Below, piece by piece: positions 1,780 to 64,000 of a stretch of 64,000 nucleotides of DNA. The first letter of the stretch is position 1. Every line of letters begins with the position of its first letter. The position numbers and the translations under genes are program-made. This DNA is from Eledone cirrhosa (lineage: Eukaryota), in contig OZ024747.1 of NCBI GenBank assembly GCA_964016885.1, forward strand, positions 50,716,001 to 50,780,000. The letters are read 5' to 3'. Below the pieces are notes generated by a model that saw only the letters and a program-made list of their open reading frames with translations, was not told the origin of the DNA and ran no database searches.

Positions 1780-4700
1780 ATGGCTATGCTAAGAGTAGGC
1801 TGTTTAAATGTGCGTGGCCTGGGCTCAACTTGGAAGCAAGCAATGCTTCTAAATGACCTCAGGTCACAACGTATAGATGTGATGGTTATTTGCGAGGCCC
1901 AGATCAGCAACGTGCGACAGCTGGCCCCCACCTTTGATGACTTCGAGATGCACGCATCTCTCTGTCAGCCCGGAGTGGGGGTGGAGTTGTCGTTCTGCTG
2001 CAAAAACATCTGGGTCTCGCAACACAGATGGTACATTTGGACCCGGAGGGTCGACTAGGCAAATCGTAGCGGATCATCTAGGTCGTACCTAGATAGGTTC
2101 TTAGTTAGAATTAAGGATAAGGACTTTTTAAGTTGTCCAAAAATGCGTATGGTTGGCTATTCAGACCACAAGTTAGTGACCTGCATGATCAACCTTGACA
2201 GAACTCATAGACAGGGTTACTGGAAGCTCAACTTGTCCTTACCGGCAAGTAAGGCTTACAGGGACCGGATTAGCACTTTAGTTAAGGAGCGGTTGACGGG
2301 CGCCATCGTCAACAGCAGGTGGTGGGGATCTCTCAAAAGAGAGATTAGAGTAGTCTCTATAGAATTTAGTAAGGAGTTAGCCTCAAATAGAAATAGGAAG
2401 GAAAGGGAGTTGGTAGATAGTGTAGAAGTGGCAATTAGAAGCGGCGACGTGGTCAGAGTGCTAGCGTCGAGAACGGCCCTGGGCCAGTTCTTCGACATGA
2501 AACACGAAGGCTGCATCGTCCGAAGCAAAATACGTGCTCTGGGAAACGAGGGGACCAAAGCTGTTAGCTGGGCCCGCGTGACAGAAGCCAAAAGAGGGAG
2601 CAGATCCACTATCCGGTCTTTGCGAGATCAGGATGGACGGGTGATCCTTGAACCTAAGCAGATGTGCGAGGTTTTTCAAAAGCACTTTGCCGGATTGTTC
2701 GGAAGGGGCGGGGAGCCGGTTGGGGATGTGGACTTCGGTCCATACCTCGACGGCCTGCCGCGTCTCTCGGACAGGGAGGCGAAGTCCTGCGAGGAGCCGA
2801 TTTCAGCCGCTGAGATAGAGGACGTGCTGAGCCAATGCGGCAAACGCAAATCCCCGGGTCTCGATGGTCTTCCATACGAACTATATCTAGCTATGCCGGA
2901 CTTGTTCCCCGATCTCCTCGAGGCGGTCTACTGCAACTGGCAACAGAACGGGAGAATTCCCTGTGCTGTGACCAAGGGCGTAGTTACGCTAGTGAGGAAG
3001 GACGAGAACAAGGGGGACGATATAAATAACTTCAGGCCCATAACTCTGCTAAACACAGAGTTACAGATTTTGGCCAAGGTGCTAGCAAAGAGGTTGGCGC
3101 TTGTCGTGGGCAACCTGGTGGGAGACGCGCAGATATGTGCTATCCCGTCCAGGTCCATCCACGACAACCTCCACCTCATGCGATACATCATAGAGAGAGT
3201 TGGGAACGAACCCGGCTTTGGTGGGGCCCTGATCATCTTGGATCAATCTAAGGCATTCGATAGGGTCGACCATGGTTACCTGGATGCGGTGCTAGCGGCG
3301 GCAGGCTTCGGACCCGTTTTCAGGGGCTGGATCAATGCCATGCACAGCAGCCGCATCTGCTCTAGGGTCAAGGTGAACGGCTACCTCTCGGAGCCGTTCG
3401 AAATCGCGCGGTCCATCCGACAGGGGTGCCCTCTCTCCTCCCTTCTGTATGTAATGACTCTAGAGCCACTGCTGCGGAAGTTGGAGTTGTTGCAGGGCAT
3501 CCCGTTGGAACCGGGATTGCGGAAAGCGGTGTCAGCCTACGCCGATGACGTAACAGTAATGGTGTCGACGGCCTCGGAAATCGGGGCGATCGGCACCTTA
3601 CTGGAGGAGTACGAAAGGTTTACAGGGGCTAAGCTGAACCGGGACAAGTCGATCGGTCTGCAACTCGGCACGTGGAGGGGCAGATCGATGCCCTCCGATG
3701 GCGTCGTCGGGCGCTGGACGGAGGGCCCGGTGAAGTTGCTCGGGGTCTGGTTCGGACCAGACCTCCAGGTGGAGAAGAACTGGGGCGAGGTAACGAACAG
3801 GGTGTTTGCACTGACCCAGAAGTGGGCCGAGTGCAAACTGTCCCTGAAAGGTCGGGCGGAGGTGGCGAACACTTATATAGCGTCCGTCATCTACTACCGC
3901 CTGACCGTTGTGCCTTGCCCAAGGGAAACGCTCGCCAAAATGGAGCGCGCACTCTTCCAATTCCTTTGGAAGAAGCGGACTCCTATGGTGAGGAGATCCA
4001 TCTGCTGTCAACACCCTTCGAAAGGAGGGCTGGGGATGCCGTGCCTAATGATACGTAAACACGCATTAAGGCTACGGCACCTTCAGGTATTCCTCTCCGG
4101 TCAACCGGTGTGGGCCCCGTTTGTGAGACGAGCCTTTCACAGACTCGTCTCACTCACCGAGCTGCAATCCTGGGTCAAGGAAAGACCGAGAAAACTGGGC
4201 GCCTGGCACACCGAGTGTGCTCAGGCTCTCACGGCTCTCTGGCAGGCGGACCCGGCTGTCAGTGGAGAATCCACCTCGTCATTCTATAGAGGGCTGGTGG
4301 TTAGCAGGTGCAACGACGCCCTCGGAGAAGCCCTAGGCATGGAGGAAGACGAACTGGCTAACCTGTTCGGTAGGACATTCAGCCCGGGACCCATGGATAA
4401 CTTCCAGAGGTCCCTGGCCTGGCAATGCTACAGAAGGGCTCTGCCCGTTCGAGAAACGCTCTACAGACACGGGCGCCCGAGTAGGGACCCCTCGAAAAAG
4501 ATCTGTCCCAGATGCGTGTGCGACGAGGAAACCGTTGCACACGCATTGGTACACTGCTCGGGCATTGCCGATCTGTGGGGCTACGTCGAACAACTGCTGT
4601 GAAGGGTGGGACCGATCCGGTTGACCACCGAGTCTATTGTAACGATCAAGCCACTTCCCCTCTTCAAAAACGAAGAAGAGGCGGTGTTTCTGTGCGTAAT

Positions 4701-18940: not shown

Positions 18941-18973
<33 letters not shown>

Positions 18974-18985
18974 TTAATATAGATG

Positions 18986-19036
18986 AGATTCTACAGGACT
19001 AGAACTGTTTCATTCTTTAGAAATCATCAGGTATCT
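18986..19036 (-). ncRNA. Hammerhead ribozyme motif (type I)
   Basis: Minus strand: AGATAC-CTGATGA-T-TTC(TAAA)GAA-T-GAAA-CAG(TTCTAGTC)CTG-TA/GAATCT; one stem I mismatch. Confidence 0.7.
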
Positions 19037-19582
19037 GGGTATCAAAAAATAATTATGGTATTTATAGGTCTCTTCATGTGGTAGAAGAGGGTAGGGAGTG
19101 GGATGGGTGTAGGTCATTGGTTGATAGAAAAGGGAATTCATTAAAAGCTAATTCTTCAAAGCTATAGTTTATTTTTAGAGTAACAAAGGCAGAAAGAATT
19201 CTATAAACAAGTTCGGGATGGGGTGCCACTCCTTATTTTTAAGTTTCTCTTAAGCTAACAATGCCTAGATATCAGGTGTCTATAAGATCATTGGGGGTCA
19301 GTCATGGTTGATGGATTTAAAGAAAAGGGACATTCTTTATATGCTAAATTCTTTAAGGTTCTACTAAGTGACAAAGGCCTAGAGAATTCTATAGACCAAT
19401 TCAAAATATTGAGTGCATATCATACCATGTATGTGTGCGTATGTGTGCGCGTGTGTGTATGTGTACATATATACATGTGTGCATGTGCATGTGCACACAT
19501 GTACACACGGGTATACACATGTGTATCTGCAGGTACATACATGTACATACATACACATGCGCACGCACGTGCGTATGCACAT

Positions 19583-19678
<96 letters not shown>

Positions 19679-19764
19679 GTATGTGTGTATATATATATAT
19701 ATATATTATACTTTCACTCGTGTAGGACACCTCGGTTATTTTTCATTTTGTAAAAAACCCTCAC

Positions 19765-19844
<80 letters not shown>

Positions 19845-20129
19845 ATATATATGTGTGTGTGTGTGTGTATATATATGTGTGTATATATGTGTGTATATTC
19901 TATAGACCAATTCAAAATATTGAGTGCATATCGTACCATTATCTTCAAATTTCTCTTAAACTATTCAACTATATTCCAAAAATCAACAGACACATTCACA
20001 AACACTCACTCACACACTCCCGCGCACCCACATACACCCACACATACATATATACATATATACATATATATATAAATATATACACACATACATATACATA
20101 TATATATACATATACACACACATATATAT

Positions 20130-20212
<83 letters not shown>

Positions 20213-20262
20213 AGAGACGTAAAATAAGAAAATTATAAAATTAACTTACTTACTAAAAAATC

Positions 20263-20345
20263 ACTTCCAACTAATTAGTTTCTGGAATGGAGTAAATATA
20301 TTTTCCGAAGAAACATATAAAAAATCATTCCGTCATCAGGAAAGA
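20263..20345 (-). ncRNA. Hammerhead ribozyme motif (type I, long stem II)
   Basis: Reverse complement of the motif at 20799-20881. Confidence 0.75.
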
Positions 20346-20798
20346 CTTTTTCCGTGTAACTCTCCAAGCATAGCGAGGACTCTGGAAACTTATTAAAAAA
20401 ATAATTCAGTGGAAAGGAAATAGCGAAGCGTGGACTGGATTCCTAGCCATTGAGAAAATCACTGCCTCTACGTCTGTGGCAAATTCAAAAAGAATCAATC
20501 ACGTGACATCGAGGTCAATCAGTGGAAAGCGAGTGGTTAATAAGACAGCGGCCAGCCTACTACCATAGTAGCAGTCATGGCCAAATATTGCTCGACAAAT
20601 GAATTGCAGATAATTATAAGGAATTCATATCTAGTAACATTTATATACACACAGATGCATATCAATGCTAGCAAATATATAGGTTTTGTCTTATTAACAT
20701 TGTGGTTCAATGCATGGGGTTGCAGAACAATAATATGAATTATTTTTTTAATAAGTTTCCAGAGTCCTCGCTATGCCTGGAGACTTACACGGAAAAAG

Positions 20799-20881
20799 AC
20801 TTTCCTGATGACGGAATGATTTTCGATATGTTTCTTCGGAAAATATATTTACTCCATTCCAGAAACTAATTAGTTGGAAGT
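20799..20881 (+). ncRNA. Hammerhead ribozyme motif (type I, long stem II)
   Basis: ACTTTC-CTGATGA-C-GGAATG...CATTCC-A-GAAAC-TAATTA-GTT/GGAAGT; palindromic AACTAATTAGTT stem III; predicted cleavage after 20875. Confidence 0.78.
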
Positions 20882-21324
20882 GATTTTTTTAGTAAGTAAG
20901 TTAATTTTATAATTTTCTTATTTTACGTCTCTCATATTATTGTTTTGCAACCCCATGCGTTGAACCACAATGTTAATAAGACAAAATCTATATATTTGCT
21001 AGCATTGATATGCATCTGTGTGTATATAAATGTTATTAGATATGAATTCCTTATAATTATCTGCAATTCATTTGTCGAGCAATATTTGGCCATGACTGCT
21101 ACTATGGTAGTAGGCTGGCCGCTGTCTTATTAACCACTCGCTTTCCACTGATTGACCTCGACGTCACGTGATTGATTCTTTTTGAATTTGCCACAGACGT
21201 AGAGGCAGTGATTTTCTCAATGGCTAGGAATCCAGTCCACGCTTCGCTATTTCCTTTCCACTGAATTATTTTTTTAATAAGTTTCCAGAGTCCTCGCTAT
21301 GCTTGGAGAGTTACACGGAAAAAG

Positions 21325-21407
21325 ACTTTCCTGATGACGGAATGATTTTCCATATGTTTCTTCGGAAAATATATTTACTCCATTCCAGAAACTAATTAGT
21401 TGGAAGT
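21325..21407 (+). ncRNA. Hammerhead ribozyme motif (type I, long stem II)
   Basis: Second direct copy; predicted cleavage after 21401. Confidence 0.78.
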
Positions 21408-21647
21408 GATTTTTTAGTAAGTAAGTTAATTTTATAATTTTCTTATTTTACGTCTCTCATATTATTGTTCTGCAACCCCATGCATTGAACCACAATGTTA
21501 ATAAGACAAAACCTATATATTTGCTAGCATTGATATGCATCTGTGTGTATATAAATGTTACTAGATATGAATTCCTTATATATATATATATATATACACA
21601 CATATATACACATATATACGTACACACATACACACATACATATATAC

Positions 21648-21724
<77 letters not shown>

Positions 21725-21837
21725 TACATATATATATATACATATATATACACACACACACACACACATACACACATATATACACATATATACACACATA
21801 TATAAATACACACACAGAGAACCACACAAACACATAC

Positions 21838-22301
<464 letters not shown>

Positions 22302-22340
22302 CACATTTCACAATGCTTCAAGCAATCTTTAACACCCTCT

Positions 22341-22372
<32 letters not shown>

Positions 22373-22921
22373 TACATGTGCATACGCACGTGCGTGCGCA
22401 TGTGTATGTATGTACATGTATGTACCTGCTGATACACATGTGTATACCCGTGTGTACATGTGTGCACATGCACATGCACACATGTATATATGTACACATA
22501 CACACACGCGCACACATACGCACACATACATGGTATGATATGCACTCAATATTTTGAATTGGTCTATAGAATTCTCTAGGCCTTTGTCACTTAGTAGAAC
22601 CTTAAAGAATTTAGCTTTTAAAGAATCTCCCTTTTCTTTAAATCCATCAACCATGACTGACCCCCAATGATCTTATAGACACCTGATATCTAGGCATTGT
22701 TAGCTTAAGAGAAACTTAAAAGTAAGGAGTGGCACCCCATCCCGAACTTGTTTATGGAATTCTTTCTGCCTTTGTTACTCTAAAAATAAACTATAGCTTT
22801 GAAGAATTAGCTTTTAATGAATTCCCTTTTCTATCAACCAATGACCTACACCCATCCCACTCCCTACCCTCTCCTACCACCTCAAGAGACCTATAAATAC
22901 CATACTTATTTTTTGATACCC

Positions 22922-22972
22922 AGATTCCTGATGATTTCTAAAGAATGAAACAGTTCTAGTCCTGTAGAATCT
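22922..22972 (+). ncRNA. Hammerhead ribozyme motif (type I)
   Basis: AGATTC-CTGATGA-T-TTC(TAAA)GAA-T-GAAA-CAG(TTCTAGTC)CTG-TA/GAATCT; perfect 6-bp stem I; GUA cleavage triplet. Confidence 0.8.
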
Positions 22973-23067
22973 CATCTATATTAAAACTATTATACTCTGC
23001 AATGTATTGAGTACCTTACTTACTGTGGTTACCTCCGACTCATCCCGGAATAACGTATATATATATA

Positions 23068-24832: not shown

Positions 24833-25163
24833 ATGTGTGTGTGTGTGTGTGTGGTGGAAGCGTGTGTAACATTTTCATCATCATTTAAGGGACGGTATTT
24901 TTTATACACACACACACGCATACACACACATATTCATACATACATGTGTACACCTCCCACTCATATATATAAACATATATGCTTATATCTATATACATAT
25001 ATATATATATATATATAAGGATTAAAATACTGGAGCGTGTTGGAGTTAAACACCTTCTTCGTATTATAGAAATGACAGTAAAAGGTATAGCTCAATGTAA
25101 TTAAACAGAGCCGAAGAATTATGAAAATAAAACAAAGAAGCCTTCAATACATCAAAAGTCTTT

Positions 25164-25208
25164 ATTAGCCAACAATGTTTCGTCCTATTAAGGACTCATC
25201 AGGGCAAT
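25164..25208 (-). ncRNA. Minimal hammerhead ribozyme (canonical core)
   Basis: Minus strand: ATTGCC-CTGATGA-GTCC(TTAATA)GGAC-GAAAC-ATT-GTT/GGCTAAT. Confidence 0.85.
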
Positions 25209-26891
25209 CAAAACCACAAGAAGCACTATCGGCCAATACAAGCCGAAAACTCCGAAGAATATGGAGTGTACATACACTAAAGTATTGGAAGATTATGGGT
25301 AAAAATATATAATAAAAATCACTAAGGAGGTGGATAACATTTTGAACCATATTACAAATATAGTCCAAAGCAAAAAAACTAGAGCTAAACAAAGTTATAT
25401 AGAGCGGGAATTATAGTACTATATGTAATACAATATAATATAATATAATATACTTGTAACAATATTAAAATTAAAATTAAAATTAAAAGGCACAATATAC
25501 ATATGTATATATGTACGCACACGTACGCACATAGACATATACATCAATACACATTTCCATCATTAACAGCACAAATCAAACCTTATTAAGAGTTTAAATA
25601 TAAATAAGCATAATAGGAATAAAAATTAAAATAATACGTATATCTAATATACAGTATAACATGAAGTAATGAAATGATTAAAAGTAACACATATAATATA
25701 TAATAAACTATATAATTATATAATATATAATATAATATAATAGATAATCTCCGGTTAATTTACACAAACAATATAGATGTCACAATAATACTATAATAAT
25801 AATATAATAATATATAATATATAATGGCATGTAAGTTAACAAATCAATTCATATAGAGTTACAGAGTAGGTAAGAAAAAAATATAAATTGTACAGTACCC
25901 AAAATTATGATGGTACAAAAATATAAACATCTTACATGATATATAAAATTTAACATATCATAATGGTACATAAAATCATCAGTAAGTAATAAGGATCAAT
26001 AGTACATTTACAAAGAGTTGAATAACAACTTCAATATAAAATAATGAACATAATATAATATATAATTACTTATAATTACAAGGTTGGTAAACAGACACAT
26101 ATGTGAATGAGTGAATAAGGGCCAGACAGAAAATACTATGCACAGTAGTATTAATAAATAAATAAATAAAATCAACCGGAAATTAAAAAACAAAAACAAA
26201 AGTATTTACTTAGGTCTCACATGCAGTTAAGTAAAAACTTAGGAAACAACCCAGATAAATGACTAGAAAACCCTATTTGATAAATTAATATTAAAAATAT
26301 TTAAAATACCTAATAAGGCAATACAATATTAGCTATGGTTTAAGTAATCAAAATTCCTAAACATTAATATTTCACTATAAATATATATAGAAAGGAATGA
26401 AATATTCTACTATCATTTACATAACGATATCTAAAAAACTGACTTAAGCAGATTATGGTAGGCTAATAGGGACAGAAAAAAAGAAATGTATGAAGGATAC
26501 AAAGGAGCATAAAATCATAATCAATATACTGTATTATATAATAGAAAGGAGCATAAAAAGGGGGGGATTAAATATAATCATAATATATTTGAAGGGGTTA
26601 GCAATAAGTTTATGTGTGCATAAGGGGGGGGGGGGTTATCTAAAGAAGAATCCAAATAAAATAAAATAAAATGAAATAAAATAATATAAAATATATAATC
26701 AGATATATACTCATAAGGTGTTAATAGTGAAAATTTAATGTGTAAGAAGATAGATATGGTATAGTAGCCAAAAGATTATGAGAGCTACAATAAAAAGTTG
26801 TCAAAAACCAATGATAATAATGATGATAATAATGGTGGTAAACAAAAAGAACCTAAACTAAAAAAAAAAAATAAGTAATGGAATATATCAG

Positions 26892-27225
26892 CTAATGGAT
26901 ACAATTTACACTACTAGAACCTTTAGGTTTATAATAAAAGTAAGAATTAGAAATAGCGTGGGGGCAAGAAGAGAATATCTCAGACTTTCTATTAAGTAAG
27001 GATTCACTAGAGAAAATTATAGAGTGTGTCTCGAGGATACAGAGATTACAAAATTTAGTATGTGTAGAAAGGTTATTAGAGCGTGCTACTAAACGCCAAT
27101 TAAGGCTATATGGTATATTAGCCCCCTTAAGATCCCAGATATAGTGTGCTAAAGAAGTAGAATTCTTAAACTTAACATGTTTGAAATTAGAGATATGAGA
27201 ATTAAACCTAGTCTTAAAAGTCTTG
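26892..27225 (-). pseudogene. C-terminal part of a PLE GIY-YIG endonuclease (uninterrupted frame, no start)
   Basis: Manual translation: KTFKTRFNSHISNFKHVKFKNSTSLAHYIWDLKGANIPYSLNWRLV...CNLCILETHSII...LLNRKSEIFSSCPH...*; missed by the ORF track. Confidence 0.82.
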
Positions 27226-27255
27226 TATTGGCCGATAGTGCTTCTTGTGGTTTTG

Positions 27256-27300
27256 ATTGCCCTGATGAGTCCTTAATAGGACGAAACATTGTTGGCTAAT
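27256..27300 (+). ncRNA. Minimal hammerhead ribozyme (canonical core)
   Basis: ATTGCC-CTGATGA-GTCC(TTAATA)GGAC-GAAAC-ATT-GTT/GGCTAAT; predicted cleavage after 27293. Confidence 0.85.
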
Positions 27301-27341
27301 AAAGACTTTTGATGTATTGAAGGCTTCTTTGTTTTATTTTC

Positions 27342-27413
<72 letters not shown>

Positions 27414-29910: not shown

Positions 29911-29974
29911 ATTTCATTATATATATTTCGGGGATATCATATTAACAATATGCTATGCCTTCATCAGACAAAAT
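29911..29974 (-). ncRNA. Hammerhead ribozyme motif (type I)
   Basis: Minus strand: ATTTTGT-CTGATGA-AGG..CATATT(GTT)AATATG..CCC-GAAA-T(ATAT)A-TA/ATGAAAT. Confidence 0.62.
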
Positions 29975-56190: not shown

Positions 56191-56364
56191 TCACTAAATA
56201 AAAATTTCTTTATTTAGCTAAATTTTCTTGTAATGTTTTTTACTTTCTTTACCTTTCTTCAAATATCATTTATTTGTTGTTGGGTTGTGATACAGTAGAT
56301 GGTAGTGACTAGAGTGTTGGTGTTAGCTCTGGGATTAGTGTTAATGGTGCTGGTTTTAAGGGTA

Positions 56365-57060
56365 GTGGTGGGTAGTAGTGTGGTGGGTAGTAGTGTGGTG
56401 GGTAGTACTGTGGTGGGTAGTAGTGTCGTGGGTAGTACCGTGGTGGGTAGAAGTGTGGTGGGTAGTAGTGTGGTGGGTAGTAGTGTGGTGGGTAGTAGAG
56501 TGGTGGGTAGTACTGTGGTGGGTGGTAGTGTGGTTTGTAGTAGTGTGGTGGGTAGTAGTGTCGTGGGTAGTACTGTGGTGGGTAGAAGTGTGGTGCGTAG
56601 TAGTGTGGTGGGTAGTAGTGTGGTGGGTAGTAGAGTGGTGGGTAGTACTGTGGTGGGTAGTAGTGTGGTGGGTAGTAGTGTGGTGGGTAGTAGTGTCGTG
56701 GGTAGTACTGTGGTGGGTAGAAGTGTCGTGGGTAATAGTGTGGTGGGTAGTAGTGTGTGGGTAGTAGTGTGGTGGGTAGTAGTGTGGTGGGTGGTAGTGT
56801 GGTTTGTAGTAGTGTGGTGGGTAGTAGTGTCGTGGGTAGTACTGTGGTGGGTAGAAGTGTGGTGGGTAGTAGTGTGGTGGGTAGTAGTGTGGTGGGTAGT
56901 AGAGTGGTGGGTAGTACTGTGGTGGGTAGTAGTGTGGTTTGTAGTAGTGTGGTGGGTAGTAGTGTCGTGGGTAGTACTGTGGTGGGTAGAAGTGTGGTGG
57001 GTAGTAGTGTGGTGGGTAGTAGTGTGGTGGGTAGTAGTGTGGTGGGTAGTAGTGTGGTGG
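56365..57060. repeat. 15-bp minisatellite GGTAGTAGTGTGGTG, about 46 copies
   Basis: Head-to-tail units with recurring variants; 2-bp deletion near 56757. Confidence 0.95.
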
Positions 57061-57202
57061 AGTGTCTGGATGCGGTGGAGGCAGGAGTGGTGGTCAAAGT
57101 ATTGGTAAAATTCGTAATGTTATTGGTGTTTGGAGCTAATAGCAAGGGTGTGTTGGTGTTACAGATGGTGATGATGGTGTAGAAAGTAATGTTGTTATTA
57201 AT

Positions 57203-60200
57203 GTTGGAGGTAGTGGTGTTGGAGGTAGTGGTGTTGGAGGTAGTGGTGTTGGAGGTAGTGGTGTTGGAGGTAGTGGTGTTGGAGGTAGTGGTGTTGGAGG
57301 TAGTGGTGTTGGAGGTAGTGGTGTTGGAGGTAGTGGTGTTGGAGGTAGTGGTGTTGGAGGTAGTGGTGTTGGGGGTAGTGGTGTTGGAGGTAGTGGTGTT
57401 GGGGGTAGTGGTGTTGGAGGTAGTGGTGTTGGAGGTAGTGGTGTTGGGGGTACTGGTGTTGGAGGTAGTGGTGTTGGAGGTAGTGGTGTTGGAGGTAGTG
57501 GTGTTGGAGGTAGTGGTGTTGGGGGTACTGGTGTTGGAGGTAGTGGTGTTGGAGGTAGTGGTGTTGGAGGTAGTGGTGTTGGAGGTAGTGGTGTTGGGGG
57601 TAGTGGTGTTGGAGGTAGTGGTGTTGGGGGTAGTGGTGTTGGAGGTAGTGGTGTTGGAGGTAGTGGTGTTGGGGGTACTGGTGTTGGAGGTAGTGGTGTT
57701 GGAGGTAGTGGTGTTGGAGGTAGTGGTGTTGGAGGTAGTGGTGTTGGGGGTAGTGGTGTTGGAGGTAGTGGTGTTGGAGGTAGTGGTGTTGGGGGTACTG
57801 GTGTTGGAGGTAGTGGTGTTGGAGGTAGTGGTGTTGGAGGTAGTGGTGTTGGAGGTAGTGGTGTTGGGGGTAGTGGTGTTGGAGGTAGTGGTGTTGGGGG
57901 TAGTGGTGTTGGAGGTAGTGGTGTTGGAGGTAGTGGTGTTGGGGGTACTGGTGTTGGAGGTAGTGGTGTTGGAGGTAGTGGTGTTGGAGGTAGTGGTGTT
58001 GGAGGTAGTGGTGTTGGGGGTAGTGGTGTTGGAGGTAGTGGTGTTGGGGGTAGTGGTGTTGGAGGTAGTGGTGTTGGAGGTAGTGGTGTTGGGGGTACTG
58101 GTGTTGGAGGTAGTGGTGTTGGAGGTAGTGGTGTTGGAGGTAGTGGTGTTGGAGGTAGTGGTGTTGGGGGTAGTGGTGTTGGAGGTAGTGGTGTTGGAGG
58201 TAGTGCTTTTGGAGGTAGTGATGGTGAACGTAGTGGTGTTGGAGGTAGTGGTGTTGGAGGTTGTGGTGTTGGAGGTAGTGGTGTTGGAGGTAGTGGTGTT
58301 GGAGGTAGTGCTGTTGGAGGTAGTGGTGTTGGAGGTAGTGGTGTTGGAGGTAGTTGTGTTGGAGGTAGTGTTGATGGATATAGTGGTGTTGGAGGTAGTG
58401 GTGTTGGAGGTAGTGGTGTTGGAGGTAGTGGTGTTGGAGGTAGTGGTGTTGGAGGTAGTGGTGTTGGAGGTAGTTGTGTTGGAGGTAGTTGTGTTGGAGG
58501 TAGTGCTTTTGGAGGTAGTGTTGTTGGAGGTAGTGGTGTTGGAGGTAGTTGTGTTGGAGGTAGTGTTGATGGATATAGTGGTGTTGGAGGTAGTGGCGTT
58601 GGAGGTAGTGGTGTTGGAGGTAGTGGTGTTGGAGGTAGTGGTGTTGGAGGTAGTGGTGTTGGAGGTAGTGGTGTTGGAGGTAGTGCTGTTGGAGGTAGTG
58701 GTGTTGGAGGTAGTGGTGTTGGAGGTAGTTGTGTTGGAGGTAGTGCTTTTGGAGGTAGTGTTGTTGGAGGTAGTGGTGTTGGAGGTAGTGGTGTTGGAGG
58801 TAGTGGTGTTGGAGGTAGTGGTGTTGGAGGTAGTTGTGTTGGAGGTAGTGGTGTTGGAGGTAGTGCTGTTGGAGGTAGTGGTGTTGGAGGTAGTGGTGTT
58901 GGAGGTAGTGGTGTTGGAGGTAGTGGTGTTGGAGGTAGTGCTGTTGGAGGTAGTGGTGTTGGAGGTAGTGGTGTTGGAGGTAGTTGTGTTGGAGGTAGTG
59001 TTGATGGATATAGTGGTGTTGGAGGTAGTGGTGTTGGAGGTAGTGGTGTTGGAGGTAGTGGTGTTGGAGGTAGTGGTGTTGGAGGTAGTTGTGTTGGAGG
59101 TAGTGTTGATGGATATAGTGGTGTTGGAGGTAGTGTTGATGGATATAGTGGTGTTGGAGGTAGTGGTGTTGGAGGTAGTGGTGTTAGTGGTAGTGGTTTT
59201 GGAGGTAGTGGTGTTGGAGGTAGTGCTGTTGGATGTAGTGGTGTTGGAGGTAGTGCTGTTGGAGGTAGTGGTGTTGGAGGTAGTGGTGTTGGAGGTAGTG
59301 GTGTTGGAGGTAGTGGTGTTGTAGGTAGTGCTGTTGGAGATAGTGGTGTTGGAGGTAGTGGTGTTGGAGGTAGTGGTGTTGGAGGTAGTGCTGTTGGAGC
59401 TAGTGGTGTTGGAGGTAGTGGTGTTGGAGGTTGTGGTGTTGGAATAGTGGTGTTGGAGGTAGTGGTGTTTGAGGTAGTGGTGTTGGAGGTAGTGCTGTTT
59501 GAGGTAGTGGTGTTGGAGGTAGTGGTGTTGGAGGTAGTGGTGTTGGAGGTAGTGGTATTGGAGGTAGTGGTGTTGGAGGTAGTGGTGTTGGAGGTAGTGG
59601 TGTTGGAGGTAGTGGTGTTGGAGGTAGTGGTGTTGGAGGTACTGGTGCTGGAAGTAGTGGTGTTGGAGGTAGTGCTGTTGGAGGTAGTGGTGTTGGAGGT
59701 AGTGGTGTTGGAGGTAGTGGTGTTGGAGGTAGTAGTGTTGGAGGTAGTGGTGTTGGAGGTAGTGGTGTGGGAGGTAGTTGTGTTGGTGGTAGTGGTGTTG
59801 GAGGTAGTGGTGCTGGAGGTAGTGGTGTTGGAGGTAGTGGTGTTGGAGGTAGTGGTGTTGGAGGTAGTGGTGTTGGAGGTAGTGGTGTTGGAGATAGTGG
59901 TTTTGGAGGTAGTGGTGTTGGAGGTAGTGGTGTTGGAGGTAGTGGTGTTGGAGGTAGTGGTGTTGGAGGTAGTGCTGTTGGAGGTAGTGGTGTTCGAGGT
60001 AGTGGTGTTGGAGGTAGTGGTGTTGGAGGTAGTGGTGTTGGAGGTAGTGCTGTTGGAGGTAGTGGTGTTGGAGGTAGGGGTGCTGGAGGTAGTGATGGTG
60101 GAGGTAGTGGTGTTGGAGGTAGTGGTGTTTGAGGTAGTGGTGTTGGAGGTAGTTGTGTTGGTGGTAGTGGTGTTGGAGGTAGTGGTGTTGGAGGTAGTGG

Positions 60201-63200
60201 TGTTGGAGGTAGTGATGTTGGAGGTAGTAGTGTTGGAGGTAGTGGTGTTGGAGGTAGTGGTGTTGGAGGTAGTGGTGTTGGAGGTAGTGGTGTTGGAGGT
60301 AGTGGTGTTGGAGGTAGTGGTGTTGGAGGTAGTGATGTTGCAGGTAGTGGTGTTGGAGGTAGTGGTGTTGGAGGTAGTGGTGTTGGAGGTAGTGCTGATG
60401 GAGGTAGTGGTGTTGGAGGTAGTGGTGTTGGAGGTAGTGGGGTTGGAGGTAGTGGTGTTGGAGGTAGTAGTGTTGGAGGTAGTGCTGTTGGAGGTAGTGA
60501 TGTTGGAGGTTGTGGTGTTGGAGGTAGTGGTGTTGGAGGTAGTGATGTTGCAGGTAGTGGTATTAGAGGTAGTGGTATTAGAGGTAGTGGTGTTGGAGGT
60601 AGTTGTGTTGGAGGTAGTGGTGTTGGAGGTAGTGCTGTTGGAGGTAGTGGTGTTGGAGGTAGTGCTGTTGGAGGTAGTGGTGCTGGAGGTAGTTGTGTTG
60701 GAGTTAGTGGTGTTGGAGGTAGTGGTGTTGGAGGTAGTGGTGTTGGAGATAGTGGTGTTGGAGATAGTGATGTTGGAGGTAGTGGTGTTGGAGGTAGTGG
60801 TGTTGGAGGTAGTGGGGTTGGAGGTAGTGGTGTTGGAGGTAGTGGTGTTGGAGGTAGTGGTGTTAGTGGAAGTGATGTTGGAGGTAGTGGTGTTGGAGGT
60901 AGTGGATTTGGAGGTAGTGGTGTTGGAGATAGTGATGTTGGAGGTAGTGGTGTTGGAGATAGTGATGTTGGAGGTAGTGGTGTTGGAGGTAGTGGTGTTG
61001 GAGGTAGTGGTGTTGGAGGTAGTGCTGTTGGAGGTAGTGGTGTTGGAGGTAGTGGTGTTGGAGGTAGTGCTGTTGGAGGTAGTGGTGTTGGAGGTAGTGG
61101 TGTTGGAGGTAGTGGTGTTGGAGGTAGTGCTGTTGGAGGTAGTGATGTTGGAGGAAGTGCTGTTGGAGGTAGTGGTGTTGGAGGTAGTGGTGTTGGAGGT
61201 AGTGCTGTTGGAGGTATTGGTGTTGGAGGTAGTGGTGTTGGAGGTACTGGTGCTGGAGGTAGTGTTGTTGGAGGTAGTGGTGTTGGAGGTAGTGGTGTTG
61301 GAGGTAGTGGTGTTGGAGGTAGTGGTGTTGGAGGTAGTGGTGTTGGAGGTAGTGCTGTTGGAGGTACTGGTGCTGGAGGTATTGGTGTTGGAGGTAGTGG
61401 TGTTGGAGGTACTGGTGCTGGAGGTAGTGGTGTTGGAGGTAGTGGTGTTGGAGTTAGTGATGTTGGAGGTAGTGATGTTGGAGGTAGTGATGTTGGAGGT
61501 AGTGATGTTGGAGGCTGTGGTGTTGGAGGTAGTGGTGTTGGAGGTAGTGGTGTTGGAGGTTGTGCTGTTGTAGGTTGTGGTGTTGGAGGTAGTAGTGTTG
61601 GAGGTAGTGGTGTTGGAGGTAGTGGTGTTGGAGGTAGTGCTGTTGGAGGTTGTGGTGTTGGAGTTAGTGGTGTTGGAGGTAGTGATATTGGAGGAAGTGA
61701 TGTTGGAGTTAGTGATGTTGGAGGTTGTGGTGTTGGAGGTAGTAGTGTTGGAGGTAGTGGTGTTGGAGTTAGTGGTGTTGGAGGTAGTGGTGTTGGAGGT
61801 TGTGGTGCTGGAGGTAGTGGTGTTGGAGTTAGTGGTGTTGGAGGTAGTGATGTTGGAGGTAGTGCTGTTGGAGGTAGTGCTGTTGGAGGTAGTGGTGTTG
61901 GAGGTAGTGGTGTTGGAGGTAGTGCTGTTGGAGGTAGTAGTGTTGGAGTTAGTGGTGTTGGAGGTAGTGATATTGGAGGTAGTGATGTTGGAGTTAGTGA
62001 TGTTGGAGGTTGTGGTGTTGGAGGTAGTAGTGTTGGATGTAGTGGTGTTGGAGTTAGTGGTGTTGGAGGTAGTGGTGTTGGAGGTTGTGGTGCTGGAGGT
62101 AGTGGTGTTGGAGTTAGTGGTGTTGGAGGTAGTGATGTTGGAGGTAGTGCTGTTGGAGGTAGTGCTGTCGGAGGTAGTGGTGTTGGAGGTAGTGGTGTTG
62201 GAGGTAGTGATGTTGGAGGTTGTGGTGCTGGAGGTAGTGGTGTTGGGGTTAGTGGTGTTGGAGGTAGTGATGTTGGAGGTAGTGCTGTTGGAGGTAGTGG
62301 TCTTGGAGGTAGTGATGTTGCAGGTAGTGGTATTAGAGGTAGTGGTATTAGAGGTAGTGGTGTTGGAGGTAGTGATGTTGGAGGTAGTGATGTTGGAGGT
62401 AGTGGTGTTGGAGGTAGTGGTGTTGGAGGTAGTGGTGTTGGAGGTTGTGGTGTTGGAGGTAGTGCTGTTGGAGGTAGTTATGTTGGAGGTAGTGGTGTTG
62501 GAGGTAGTGCTGTTGGAGGTAGTGATGTTAGAGGTAGTGGTGTTGGAGGTAGTGCTGTTGGAGGTAGTGGAGTTGGAGGTAGTGGTGTTGGAGGTAGTAG
62601 TGTTGGAGGTAGTGCTGTTGGAGGTAGTGGTGTTGGAGGTTGTGATGTTGCAGGTAGTGGTATTAGAGATAGTGGTATTAGAGGTAGTGGTGTTGGAGGT
62701 AGTGCTGTTGAAGGTAGTGGTGCTGGAGGTAGTGGTGTTGGAGGTAGTGGTGTTGGAGGTAGTGATGTTGCAGGTAGTGGTATTAGAGATAGTGGTATTA
62801 GAGGTAGTGGTGTTGGAGGTAGTGCTGTTGAAGGTAGTGGTGCTGGAGGTAGTGGTGTTGGAGGTAGTGGTGTTGGAGGTAGTGGTGTTTGAGGTAGTGG
62901 TGTTGGAGGTAGTGCTGTTGGAGGTAGTGGTGTTGGAGGTAGTGGTGTTGGAGGTAGTGGTGTTGGAGGTTGTGCTGTTGGAGGTAGTGGTGCTGGAGGT
63001 AGTTGTGTTGGAGGTAGTGGTGTTGGAGGTAGTGGTGCTGGAGGTAGTTGTGTTGGAGGTAGTAGCGTTGGAGGTAGTGGTGTTGGAGGTAGTGGTGTTG
63101 GAGGTAGTGGTGTTGGAGGTAGTGCTGTTGGAGGTAGTGAAGTTGGAAGTAGTGGTGTTGGAGGTAGTGCTGTTGGAGGTAGTTGTGTTGGAGGTAGTGG

Positions 63201-64000
63201 TGTTGGAGGTAGTGCTGTTGGAGGTAGTGCTGTTGGAAGTAGTGATATTTGAGGTTGTGGTGTTGGAAGTAGTGGTGTTGGAGGTAGTGGTGTTGGAGGT
63301 AGTGGTGCTGGAGGTAGTTGTGTTGGAGGTAGTGATGTTGGAGGTAGTGGTGTTGGAGGTAGTGGTGTTGGAGGTAGTGATGTTGGAGGTAGTGGTGTTG
63401 GAGATAGTGGTGTTGGAGGTAGTGGTGTTGGAGGTAGTGGTGTTGGAGGTAGTGGTGTTGGAGGTAGTGGTGTTTGAGGTAGTGGTGTTGGAGGTAGTGG
63501 TGTTGGAGGTAGTGATGGTGGAGGTAGTGGTGTTGGAGGTAGTGGTGTTGGAGGTAGTTGTGTTGGAGGTAGTGATGTTGGAGGTAGTGGTGTTGGAGGT
63601 AGTGGTGTTGGAGGTAGTGATGTTGGAGGTAGTGGTGTTGGAGGTAGTGGTGTTGGAGGTAGTGGTGTTGGAGGTAGTGGTGTTGTAGGTAGTGATGGTG
63701 GAGGTAGTGGTGTTGGAGGTAGTGGTGTTGGAGGTAGTGGTGTTTGAGGTAGTGGTGTTGGAGGTAGTGGTGTTAGTGGTTGTGGTGTTGGAGGTAGTGG
63801 TCTTGGAGGTAGTGGTGTTGGAGGTAGTAGTGTTGGAGGTAGTGGTGTTGGAGGTAGTGGTGTTGTAGGTAGTGATGGTGGAGGTAGTGGTGTTGGAGGT
63901 AGTGGTGTTGGAGGTAGTGTTGTTGGAGGTAGTGGTGTTGGAGGTAGTGCTTTTGGAGGTAGTGATGGTGGAGGTAGTGGTGTTGGAGGTAGTGGTGTTG
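57203..64000. repeat. 15-bp minisatellite GTTGGAGGTAGTGGT, about 450 copies, continuing past the window end
   Basis: Phase conserved throughout except a single 1-bp deletion near 59444; higher-order variant patterns. Confidence 0.97.

Follow-up and report, generated by a model that had tools for sequence, protein, structure and literature searches.

The locus at 20211..21577 of the window (the whole 64,000-nt stretch of Eledone cirrhosa DNA that was analysed) is best explained as one insertion of a high-copy, non-coding hammerhead tandem repeat of the animal non-LTR retrozyme type. It was likely inserted by a Neptune-like Penelope enzyme that copied one RNA, which for part of the family was likely a 526-nt circle. 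We consider this explanation as a whole fairly probable, and hold with high confidence the broader statement that the family is a non-autonomous parasite of Penelope-like elements (PLEs). The family is a young set of thousands of copies carrying the PLE integration signature. Its unit is non-coding, its copies end at two fixed 3' sites (A and B) and begin at variable 5' positions, opposite arms are joined head-to-head as A+B pairs, each insertion carries one haplotype, and the ribozyme fold is conserved. From these observations we infer the enzyme, the cleavage, the circle and the promoter.

Architecture of the locus and its hammerhead motifs

As listed below, the insertion comprises two arms lying between (TA)n-rich sequences.

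20044..20210, no strand: left (TA)n-rich target
20211..20738, minus strand: minus arm of the insertion, one unit; 3' end is site A, abutting (TA)n; 5' end head-to-head with the plus arm; 98% identity to the plus copy
20263..20345, minus strand: type I hammerhead of the inverted arm; predicted cut between 20269 and 20268; one stem I pair lost
20736..20738, no strand: arm junction, a 3-nt overlap (microhomology); across the family, overlaps between opposite arms are mostly 0-4 nt
20736..21577, plus strand: plus arm of the insertion, 1.6 units, 5'-truncated; 3' end is site B, abutting (TA)n
20799..20881, plus strand: type I hammerhead 1; stem I 20799-20804/20876-20881; core 20805-20811; stem II region 20812-20861 with UUCG loop; GAAA 20862-20865; palindromic stem III; predicted cut after 20875 (GUU)
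20876..21401, plus strand: cut-to-cut monomer, 526 nt, 35% GC, no long ORF
21163..21177, plus strand: conserved CACGTG-containing motif adjoining a CCAAT-like word; candidate internal promoter
21325..21407, plus strand: type I hammerhead 2; predicted cut after 21401
21459..21577, plus strand: 119-nt tail between site A (after 21458) and site B (after 21577), with two conserved hairpins at about 21467-21490 and 21516-21569
21577..21958, no strand: right (TA)n-rich target

The direct copies of the unit were spaced 526 and 525 nt apart, and the inverted pair 20208-20738 / 20932-21462 extended over 531 nt with 98% complementarity; the minus and plus arms were 97-98% alike. The architecture is tandem and not LTR-like. 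The longest stop-free frame at the locus was 77 aa and the longest ATG frame 53 aa, and a scan for tRNA genes at the locus was empty. The 526-nt monomer folded better than its shuffles (z -4.12), and the tail hairpins showed two-sided change across copies in 3 of 31 pairs. The words at 21163..21177, which we take to be promoter motifs of the CACGTG and CCAAT-like kinds, may serve as an internal promoter; similar words occur in the 3' UTRs of coding PLEs of this genome. In a read-through RNA of the locus the two arms are predicted to fold together and bury hammerhead 2 within a 531-bp hairpin, and the locus is thus possibly a poor source copy.

An earlier note on this DNA had predicted cuts after 20875 and 21401 releasing a 526-nt monomer without a long ORF, an unusually long stem II, one full inverted monomer joined to the plus array, and (TA)n on both sides. 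All of these were recovered: three type I motifs were located, the frames were as short as stated above, the inverted monomer is the minus arm, the (TA)n lies at 20044-20210 and 21577-21958, and the 50-nt stem II region covaries across subfamilies.

The hammerhead cores (CUGAUGA) start at 20805(+), 21331(+) and 20339(-), and each is followed by the 50-nt stem II region, GAAA, a 3-bp palindromic stem III and a GUU triplet. The weak points of the motif are this triplet, the 3-bp stem III and a C-A at the base of stem II; GUU is a poor cleavage triplet for hammerheads. The isolated motifs folded no better than shuffles (z -0.14, -0.15 and -0.76), and the active fold lay 2.5-6.5 kcal/mol above the minimum free energy, with a competing fold. 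The Rfam hammerhead families gave 0 matches over the window at the gathering threshold, and only chance miRNA/snoRNA matches at E<=10, a silence that is likely due to the long stem II.

Covariation was assessed in an alignment of the window copy with 59 copies from loci chosen by the A end and not by the ribozyme. The 59 were drawn from 66 such ribozyme-independent copies, the other 7 being mostly truncated or interrupted by indels. The type I fold was paired in 92.3% of the alignment cells. Its covariation reached 0.210, compared with 0.134 in shuffles (0 of 500 reached it, although relatedness inflates the figure) and 0.05-0.09 when the partners were slid. The basal helix of stem II was 98.6% paired, with one basal pair occurring as A-U, G-C, C-G and U-A, and the distal helix was capped by a UUCG loop, replaced by UACG in the most distant subfamilies. 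The core was intact in 53/66 copies not selected on it; shared variants fell in 0/6 columns of the 5' core versus 196/504 columns, a depletion that was not significant (p 0.087). Stem III and its loop were nearly invariant, which fits pairing between two ribozymes; hammerheads with a weak helix III are described as cleaving as dimers (PMC7761336). The ribozyme is therefore real as a conserved structure, and its self-cleavage is predicted. In the account given by Li et al., 8/9 Xenopus retrozyme dimers failed to cleave in vitro (bioRxiv 2026.07.22.740005).

The weak local folding and the silence of Rfam are what would be expected of a satellite that spread by DNA recombination and whose ribozyme motif is fortuitous or dead, and some arrays of the family did expand in DNA (see below). 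This explanation is hardly credible, however: the compensatory changes in stem II and the invariant core speak against it, as do short, dispersed copies that are 5'-truncated, have fixed 3' ends and show A+B inversion.

Several other elements were seen in the window. The retrozyme locus is enclosed by an older head-to-head insertion of another PLE-like family (18968-19617 on the minus strand and 22341-23055 on the plus strand), which carries hammerhead-like cores at 19030 and 22928 and a tail of about 66 nt on the right arm, absent on the left, as in an A+B pair. A solo tail of the coding L132 family lies between two TA runs at 19706-19770, as it also does in L043, and a foldback element with arms of about 100 nt lies at 21960-22320. 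A further PLE-like family, about 2 kb long, is represented by two short canonical type I hammerheads in inverted orientation (25018-25300, minus; about 27220-27345, plus), flanked by TA. The segment 30335-33204 (minus) holds a disrupted coding PLE, Neptune-like and related to L132, whose 3' UTR and tail are present; by eye, the 3' UTRs of this PLE and of L132 hold a hammerhead-like motif in which the core C-G pair is replaced by U-A. Hammerhead-like cores of another family, in which stem II is extended and GAAA is followed by an AT palindrome, lie at 29967, 48735 and 52988 (all minus). An 847-aa frame at 2059-4602 (plus) has RT-like motifs and is LINE-like by eye, and a long short-period tandem array at about 56250-63770 has open frames of over 1,400 aa on both strands.

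The family, its fixed ends and the coding PLEs

The subfamily ribozyme 27-mer had 2,208 exact copies in the 3.0-Gb host genome and its control had 0, so the locus is not a chance occurrence; a family 17-mer had 13,096 exact copies (control 1). Sampling went by position on contig C1 and reached a small fraction of the family. The first sample comprised the initial 100 matches to the ribozyme; the second, 89 loci out of the initial 100 matches to the A end, with one long array added; and the third, 30 loci of the 17-mer list. The 88 distinct full units spanned up to 32% distance in a ladder-like tree. Family GC is under 50% and the units have no protein-coding capacity: in 22 cluster representatives, up to 32% apart, the longest stop-free frame was 52-100 aa. 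Units joined head-to-tail gave 111 cut-to-cut intervals of 471-571 nt (loci overlapping) with no ORF between them. Contigs from two runs of one sample contained subfamily variants and head-to-tail joints only; RNA ends cannot be read from such contigs.

The copies stopped at two fixed sites, A lying 57 nt and B 176 nt after the cut. The first two C1 samples comprised 253 arms, of which 130 ended at A and 92 at B; the 31 with other ends were mostly short spurious microsatellite matches. Genome-wide, 1,298 exact A-end matches were counted versus 2,076 read-through matches. (TA)4 followed 207/222 of the A and B arms, part of the sample having been chosen on A end plus TA, and the (TA)n flanks hide any target-site duplication. 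The 5' ends varied and were spread throughout the unit, arm lengths being roughly exponential with a mean of about 420 nt; 39/109 A arms and 24/71 B arms were longer than one unit. The first 20 nt after the cut held 21-22 of the 5' ends versus about 11 expected (P 0.002-0.003 for that prior position). This pile-up is suggestive, with the caveat that 18.5% of uniform simulations gave an equally extreme window somewhere and that two other windows were enriched about 1.9-2-fold.

The pairing of ends was nearly strict. After one duplicated locus was dropped, 83 head-to-head insertions were scored, of which 74 were A+B, none A+A, none B+B, and 9 had one other end. In the subset picked by the ribozyme there were 29 A+B and 8 other, and in that picked by the A end 56/56 were A+B. 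The A end occurred on either strand among the A+B insertions (38 and 36). Reading by eye added 7 A+B and 1 other from the third sample (17-mer loci). By eye as well, 28 similarity-ranked insertions were divided into 16 A+B, 3 other or complex, 8 single and 1 foldback; the foldback (L010) paired A with a near-A end, 1-2 nt short of A, without TA. Random circular permutation of the copies was ruled out by the two fixed 3' ends and the A+B pairing. Classic same-RNA twin priming, for which the LINE-1 model is the reference, was ruled out by reasoning, both outer ends being fixed and both inner ends variable.

Coding PLE remnants are very common in this genome, with 10,598 GIY-YIG candidates. Five sampled coding frames matched RVT_1 in 5/5 and GIY-YIG also in 4/5 (Pfam), and several coding PLEs carried a Cys-rich linker ahead of the nuclease, as described for Neptune (PMC8557442). 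By sequence, the coding families L132, L134 and L143 appear Neptune-like. Four coding families had A and B ends in (TA)n and tails of about 33-66 nt. In the L132 family, an inverted partner end was visible in 23 of 30 A-ended loci and lay at B in all 23, the other 7 being single or running out of view. At loci L270-L299 of this family, 23/49 arm 5' ends clustered in a 17-nt stretch that lies upstream of both the A end (by about 150 nt) and the putative cut (by about 60-70 nt); this is possibly the transcription start of the L132 family.

Since ends, tail and inverted arms are all of PLE type and coding remnants are so abundant, the unit might be a mere terminal repeat (pLTR) of a coding PLE and the loci its truncated ends. 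The sampled copies, mostly from contig C1, strongly disfavour this reading and make it very improbable. A sense-strand RT/EN frame was found in 0/61 of the 5' flanks (0.6-2.5 kb) of single arms, 41 of which abutted a TA run, and in none of the 30 further loci upstream. Units follow one another head-to-tail at the 471-571-nt spacing without an intervening ORF, and the 83 head-to-head insertions leave no room for one. Two family copies beside coding PLEs (L117/L130 and L139) proved to be separate insertions, lying beyond the PLE's own end and TA run. In the search for a partner, 150 of the 10,598 GIY-YIG candidates were scored; none of 50 GIY-YIG loci compared by blastn (30 short and 20 long), 49 of them also by covariance model, shared the unit sequence, and only separate family insertions were met.

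The earlier note had expected the copies to be tandem genome-wide, to be mobilised by PLEs and never to be attached to an RT ORF, and had named a terminal repeat of a coding PLE as one outcome that would overturn it. The dispersed, high-copy, non-coding tandem family agrees with the first expectation; the fixed ends and pairing rule, which match those of the coding PLEs, agree with the second; and no attachment was seen among the sampled copies, whose head-to-tail units without ORF and frame-free flanks (0/61 and 0/30) speak against the terminal repeat. Its view of the plus array as circularly permuted held for the 1.6 units and the mid-unit ends and failed for free permutation, and copies elsewhere were likewise not randomly permuted, their 3' ends sitting at sites A and B instead.

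RNA template and growth of the arrays

We propose the following course of events. Tandem copies would be transcribed, perhaps from the conserved CACGTG motif, and neighbouring hammerheads, probably paired via the palindromic stem III, would excise monomers. Some monomers would be ligated into circles while partly cut linear multimers coexist, and the templates would probably be a mix of the two. A PLE RT-endonuclease, probably a dimer, would nick both strands of (TA)n. One cDNA would start at A and the other at B, flanking the two-hairpin tail, on the same RNA or on sister RNAs of one locus. The cDNAs would average about 420 nt in length and mostly pass the cut sites without stopping. By annealing over 0-4 nt of microhomology the two would yield head-to-head arms; otherwise one arm would join the target by itself.

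The haplotypes bear on the identity of the template. Differences at lineage sites, per 100 nt, were 0.17-0.25 between successive units and 0.21-0.44 between opposite arms, versus 1.7-3.5 between loci, while private differences were similar within insertions (1.8-4.5) and between loci (2.6-5.0). One haplotype therefore feeds both arms. For each private change, about 0.04-0.05 lineage-like changes are expected from recurrent mutation by itself, which amounts to roughly a third to most of the same-arm signal. The units of one locus grouped together in the tree, and arms were possibly mixed at a few loci (L207, L040 and L227). Such single-haplotype multimers would favour a circular template.

The cut-site window was read through in 212/235 passages. 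Stops within 21 nt after the cut site occurred in 10/161 first passes versus 13/74 later passes (background 4.9%; Fisher p 0.009). The raised stops on later passes suggest that some templates were linear, with their 5' end at the cut site. A uniform closed circle does not predict them and is thus disfavoured as the sole template. The unligated monomer is likewise disfavoured as the main template, no excess of stops being seen at the first cut site.

The arrays were of two kinds. In L304 and L307 (3-5 units), internal divergence equalled divergence from the opposite arm, as expected if these were born as multimers. In L309, L302 and L306 the units were closer to each other than to the opposite arm, and in L239 (C1:94665400-94675300) variants were shared among units in a nested manner, indicating that the longest arrays expanded in DNA after insertion. 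Separately, L239, L302 and L309, arrays of the family with 9-16 units, lengthened at the DNA level once inserted and show a satellite being born from a retroelement.

The DNA-level expansion means that multimers can arise without a circle and that uniform linear templates could be supplied. Given also the later cut-site stops, linear templates could suffice. The same non-autonomous PLE parasite would then be copied only from linear read-through RNAs of tandem arrays, with unequal crossing-over at the DNA level restoring the long uniform source arrays, and the hammerhead doing no more than trim 5' ends or help the enzyme recognise the RNA. The stops raised at the second and third cut sites and not the first, and the expansion of L309, L302, L306, L303 and L239, agree with this. 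The strand imbalance of the internal patterns (1,219 vs 989 for the 27-mer; 7,041 vs 6,055 for the 17-mer) may hint at unseen long arrays; PAc, the Poseidon element of Anolis, is reported to prefer unprocessed RNA (PMC11167929); and Li et al. 2026 propose local tandem amplification (bioRxiv 2026.07.22.740005). Against it, no giant master array turned up in the 40 candidates scored out of 2,461, the longest arrays there having 9-11 units. No sampled locus had all the array-specific variants of any of four expanded arrays, and none had two or more of those of L309 or L306 (134-193 locus ids per array, some overlapping). In the ladder-like tree, which covers a small sample of the family, haplotypes are numerous, and within each insertion all units carry a single one. 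We regard copying from linear RNAs only as unlikely, and a contribution of the circle as template as reasonably probable; the family haplotypes, the arm lengths and L304/L307 would fit rolling on a monomer circle.

A bolder form of the circle model would make the family a free-standing RNA-circle parasite lineage of Neptune PLEs, 30% divergent without a coding parent. Its insertions would then be the trace of an enzyme of two subunits that primes on both strands of the target, starting from two fixed sites on a single 526-nt circle, and rolls round that circle. We put this forward tentatively, as somewhat doubtful. If true, it would prove from genomic data that retrozymes transpose by a rolling circle, and would explain in general how the PLE tail and inverted repeat arise.

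Comparison with known systems

Animal non-LTR retrozymes are described as non-coding repeats in tandem, every unit bearing one type I hammerhead, with GC under 50%, arrays from dimers to multimers, copy numbers in the thousands and a proposed PLE dependence (PMC7229834; Li et al., bioRxiv 10.64898/2026.07.22.740005). The present family is alike in its tandem units with a type I hammerhead in each, its lack of coding capacity, its GC under 50% and its multicopy state, attachment to an RT ORF not having been seen in the samples. Its 526 nt lie within the 51-972 bp range given by Li et al. (bioRxiv 10.64898/2026.07.22.740005), and exceed the 150-450 bp of the animal retrozyme units characterised by northern blot. 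The 50-nt stem II with its UNCG-capped extension sets it apart from the animal retrozymes described. By the features that can be tested in sequence the family is an animal non-LTR retrozyme, for which self-cleavage and circRNA are predicted. The class itself is already known, Li et al. 2026 having called animal retrozymes non-autonomous PLE derivatives with units up to 972 bp; the additions made here are the long tail, the long stem II, the missing parent and the counted A+B rule. Nothing relevant on such a family in cephalopods, or on strand-coupled A+B starts, was found in the open-access literature.

In insertions of endonuclease-bearing PLEs, a 5'-truncated inverted copy is often present, together with a tail of 30-40 bp on one side (PMC8557442, PMC3846280). 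These elements, and L132, L134 and L143 of this genome, resemble the family in their two 3' end sites, one-arm tail, inverted 5'-truncated arm, partial tandems and (TA)n targets. The family differs in having no ORF and in arms that are multimers of one short unit, and its tail is 119 nt, against 30-40 nt in the published PLEs and about 33-66 nt in the local coding families. The non-autonomous PLEs of Chlamys, e.g. MRC1, share with the family a derivation from PLEs, pLTRs and insertions that hold multiple copies head-to-tail. Their 3' ends are similar to those of their autonomous partners, whereas the family had no partner among the 50 GIY-YIG loci, and most of them are described without canonical hammerheads, whereas the family has one (PMC8557442).

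The purified PAc enzyme nicked both strands and extended them, starting at two internal sites by which the tail is defined; it was predicted to be a dimer, and the RNA used in vitro was unprocessed (PMC11167929). PAc and the family share the two internal start sites defining a tail, near a stem-loop, as well as an AT-rich target and a hammerhead just upstream. PAc is a coding element, and its start sites were reported without strand difference (PMC11167929); the family is non-coding, and its two arms almost always use different sites.

The PLE link of animal retrozymes has so far rested, in the papers cited, on co-occurrence and pLTR homology. Here no pLTR homologue of the unit was found among the 50 GIY-YIG loci compared, and the link comes instead from the integration signature on thousands of young copies. 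The near-strict A+B rule and the one-haplotype arms make a sharp prediction for an in vitro PLE assay on the origin of the tail and inverted repeat, and the family offers a short non-coding substrate for testing that mechanism.
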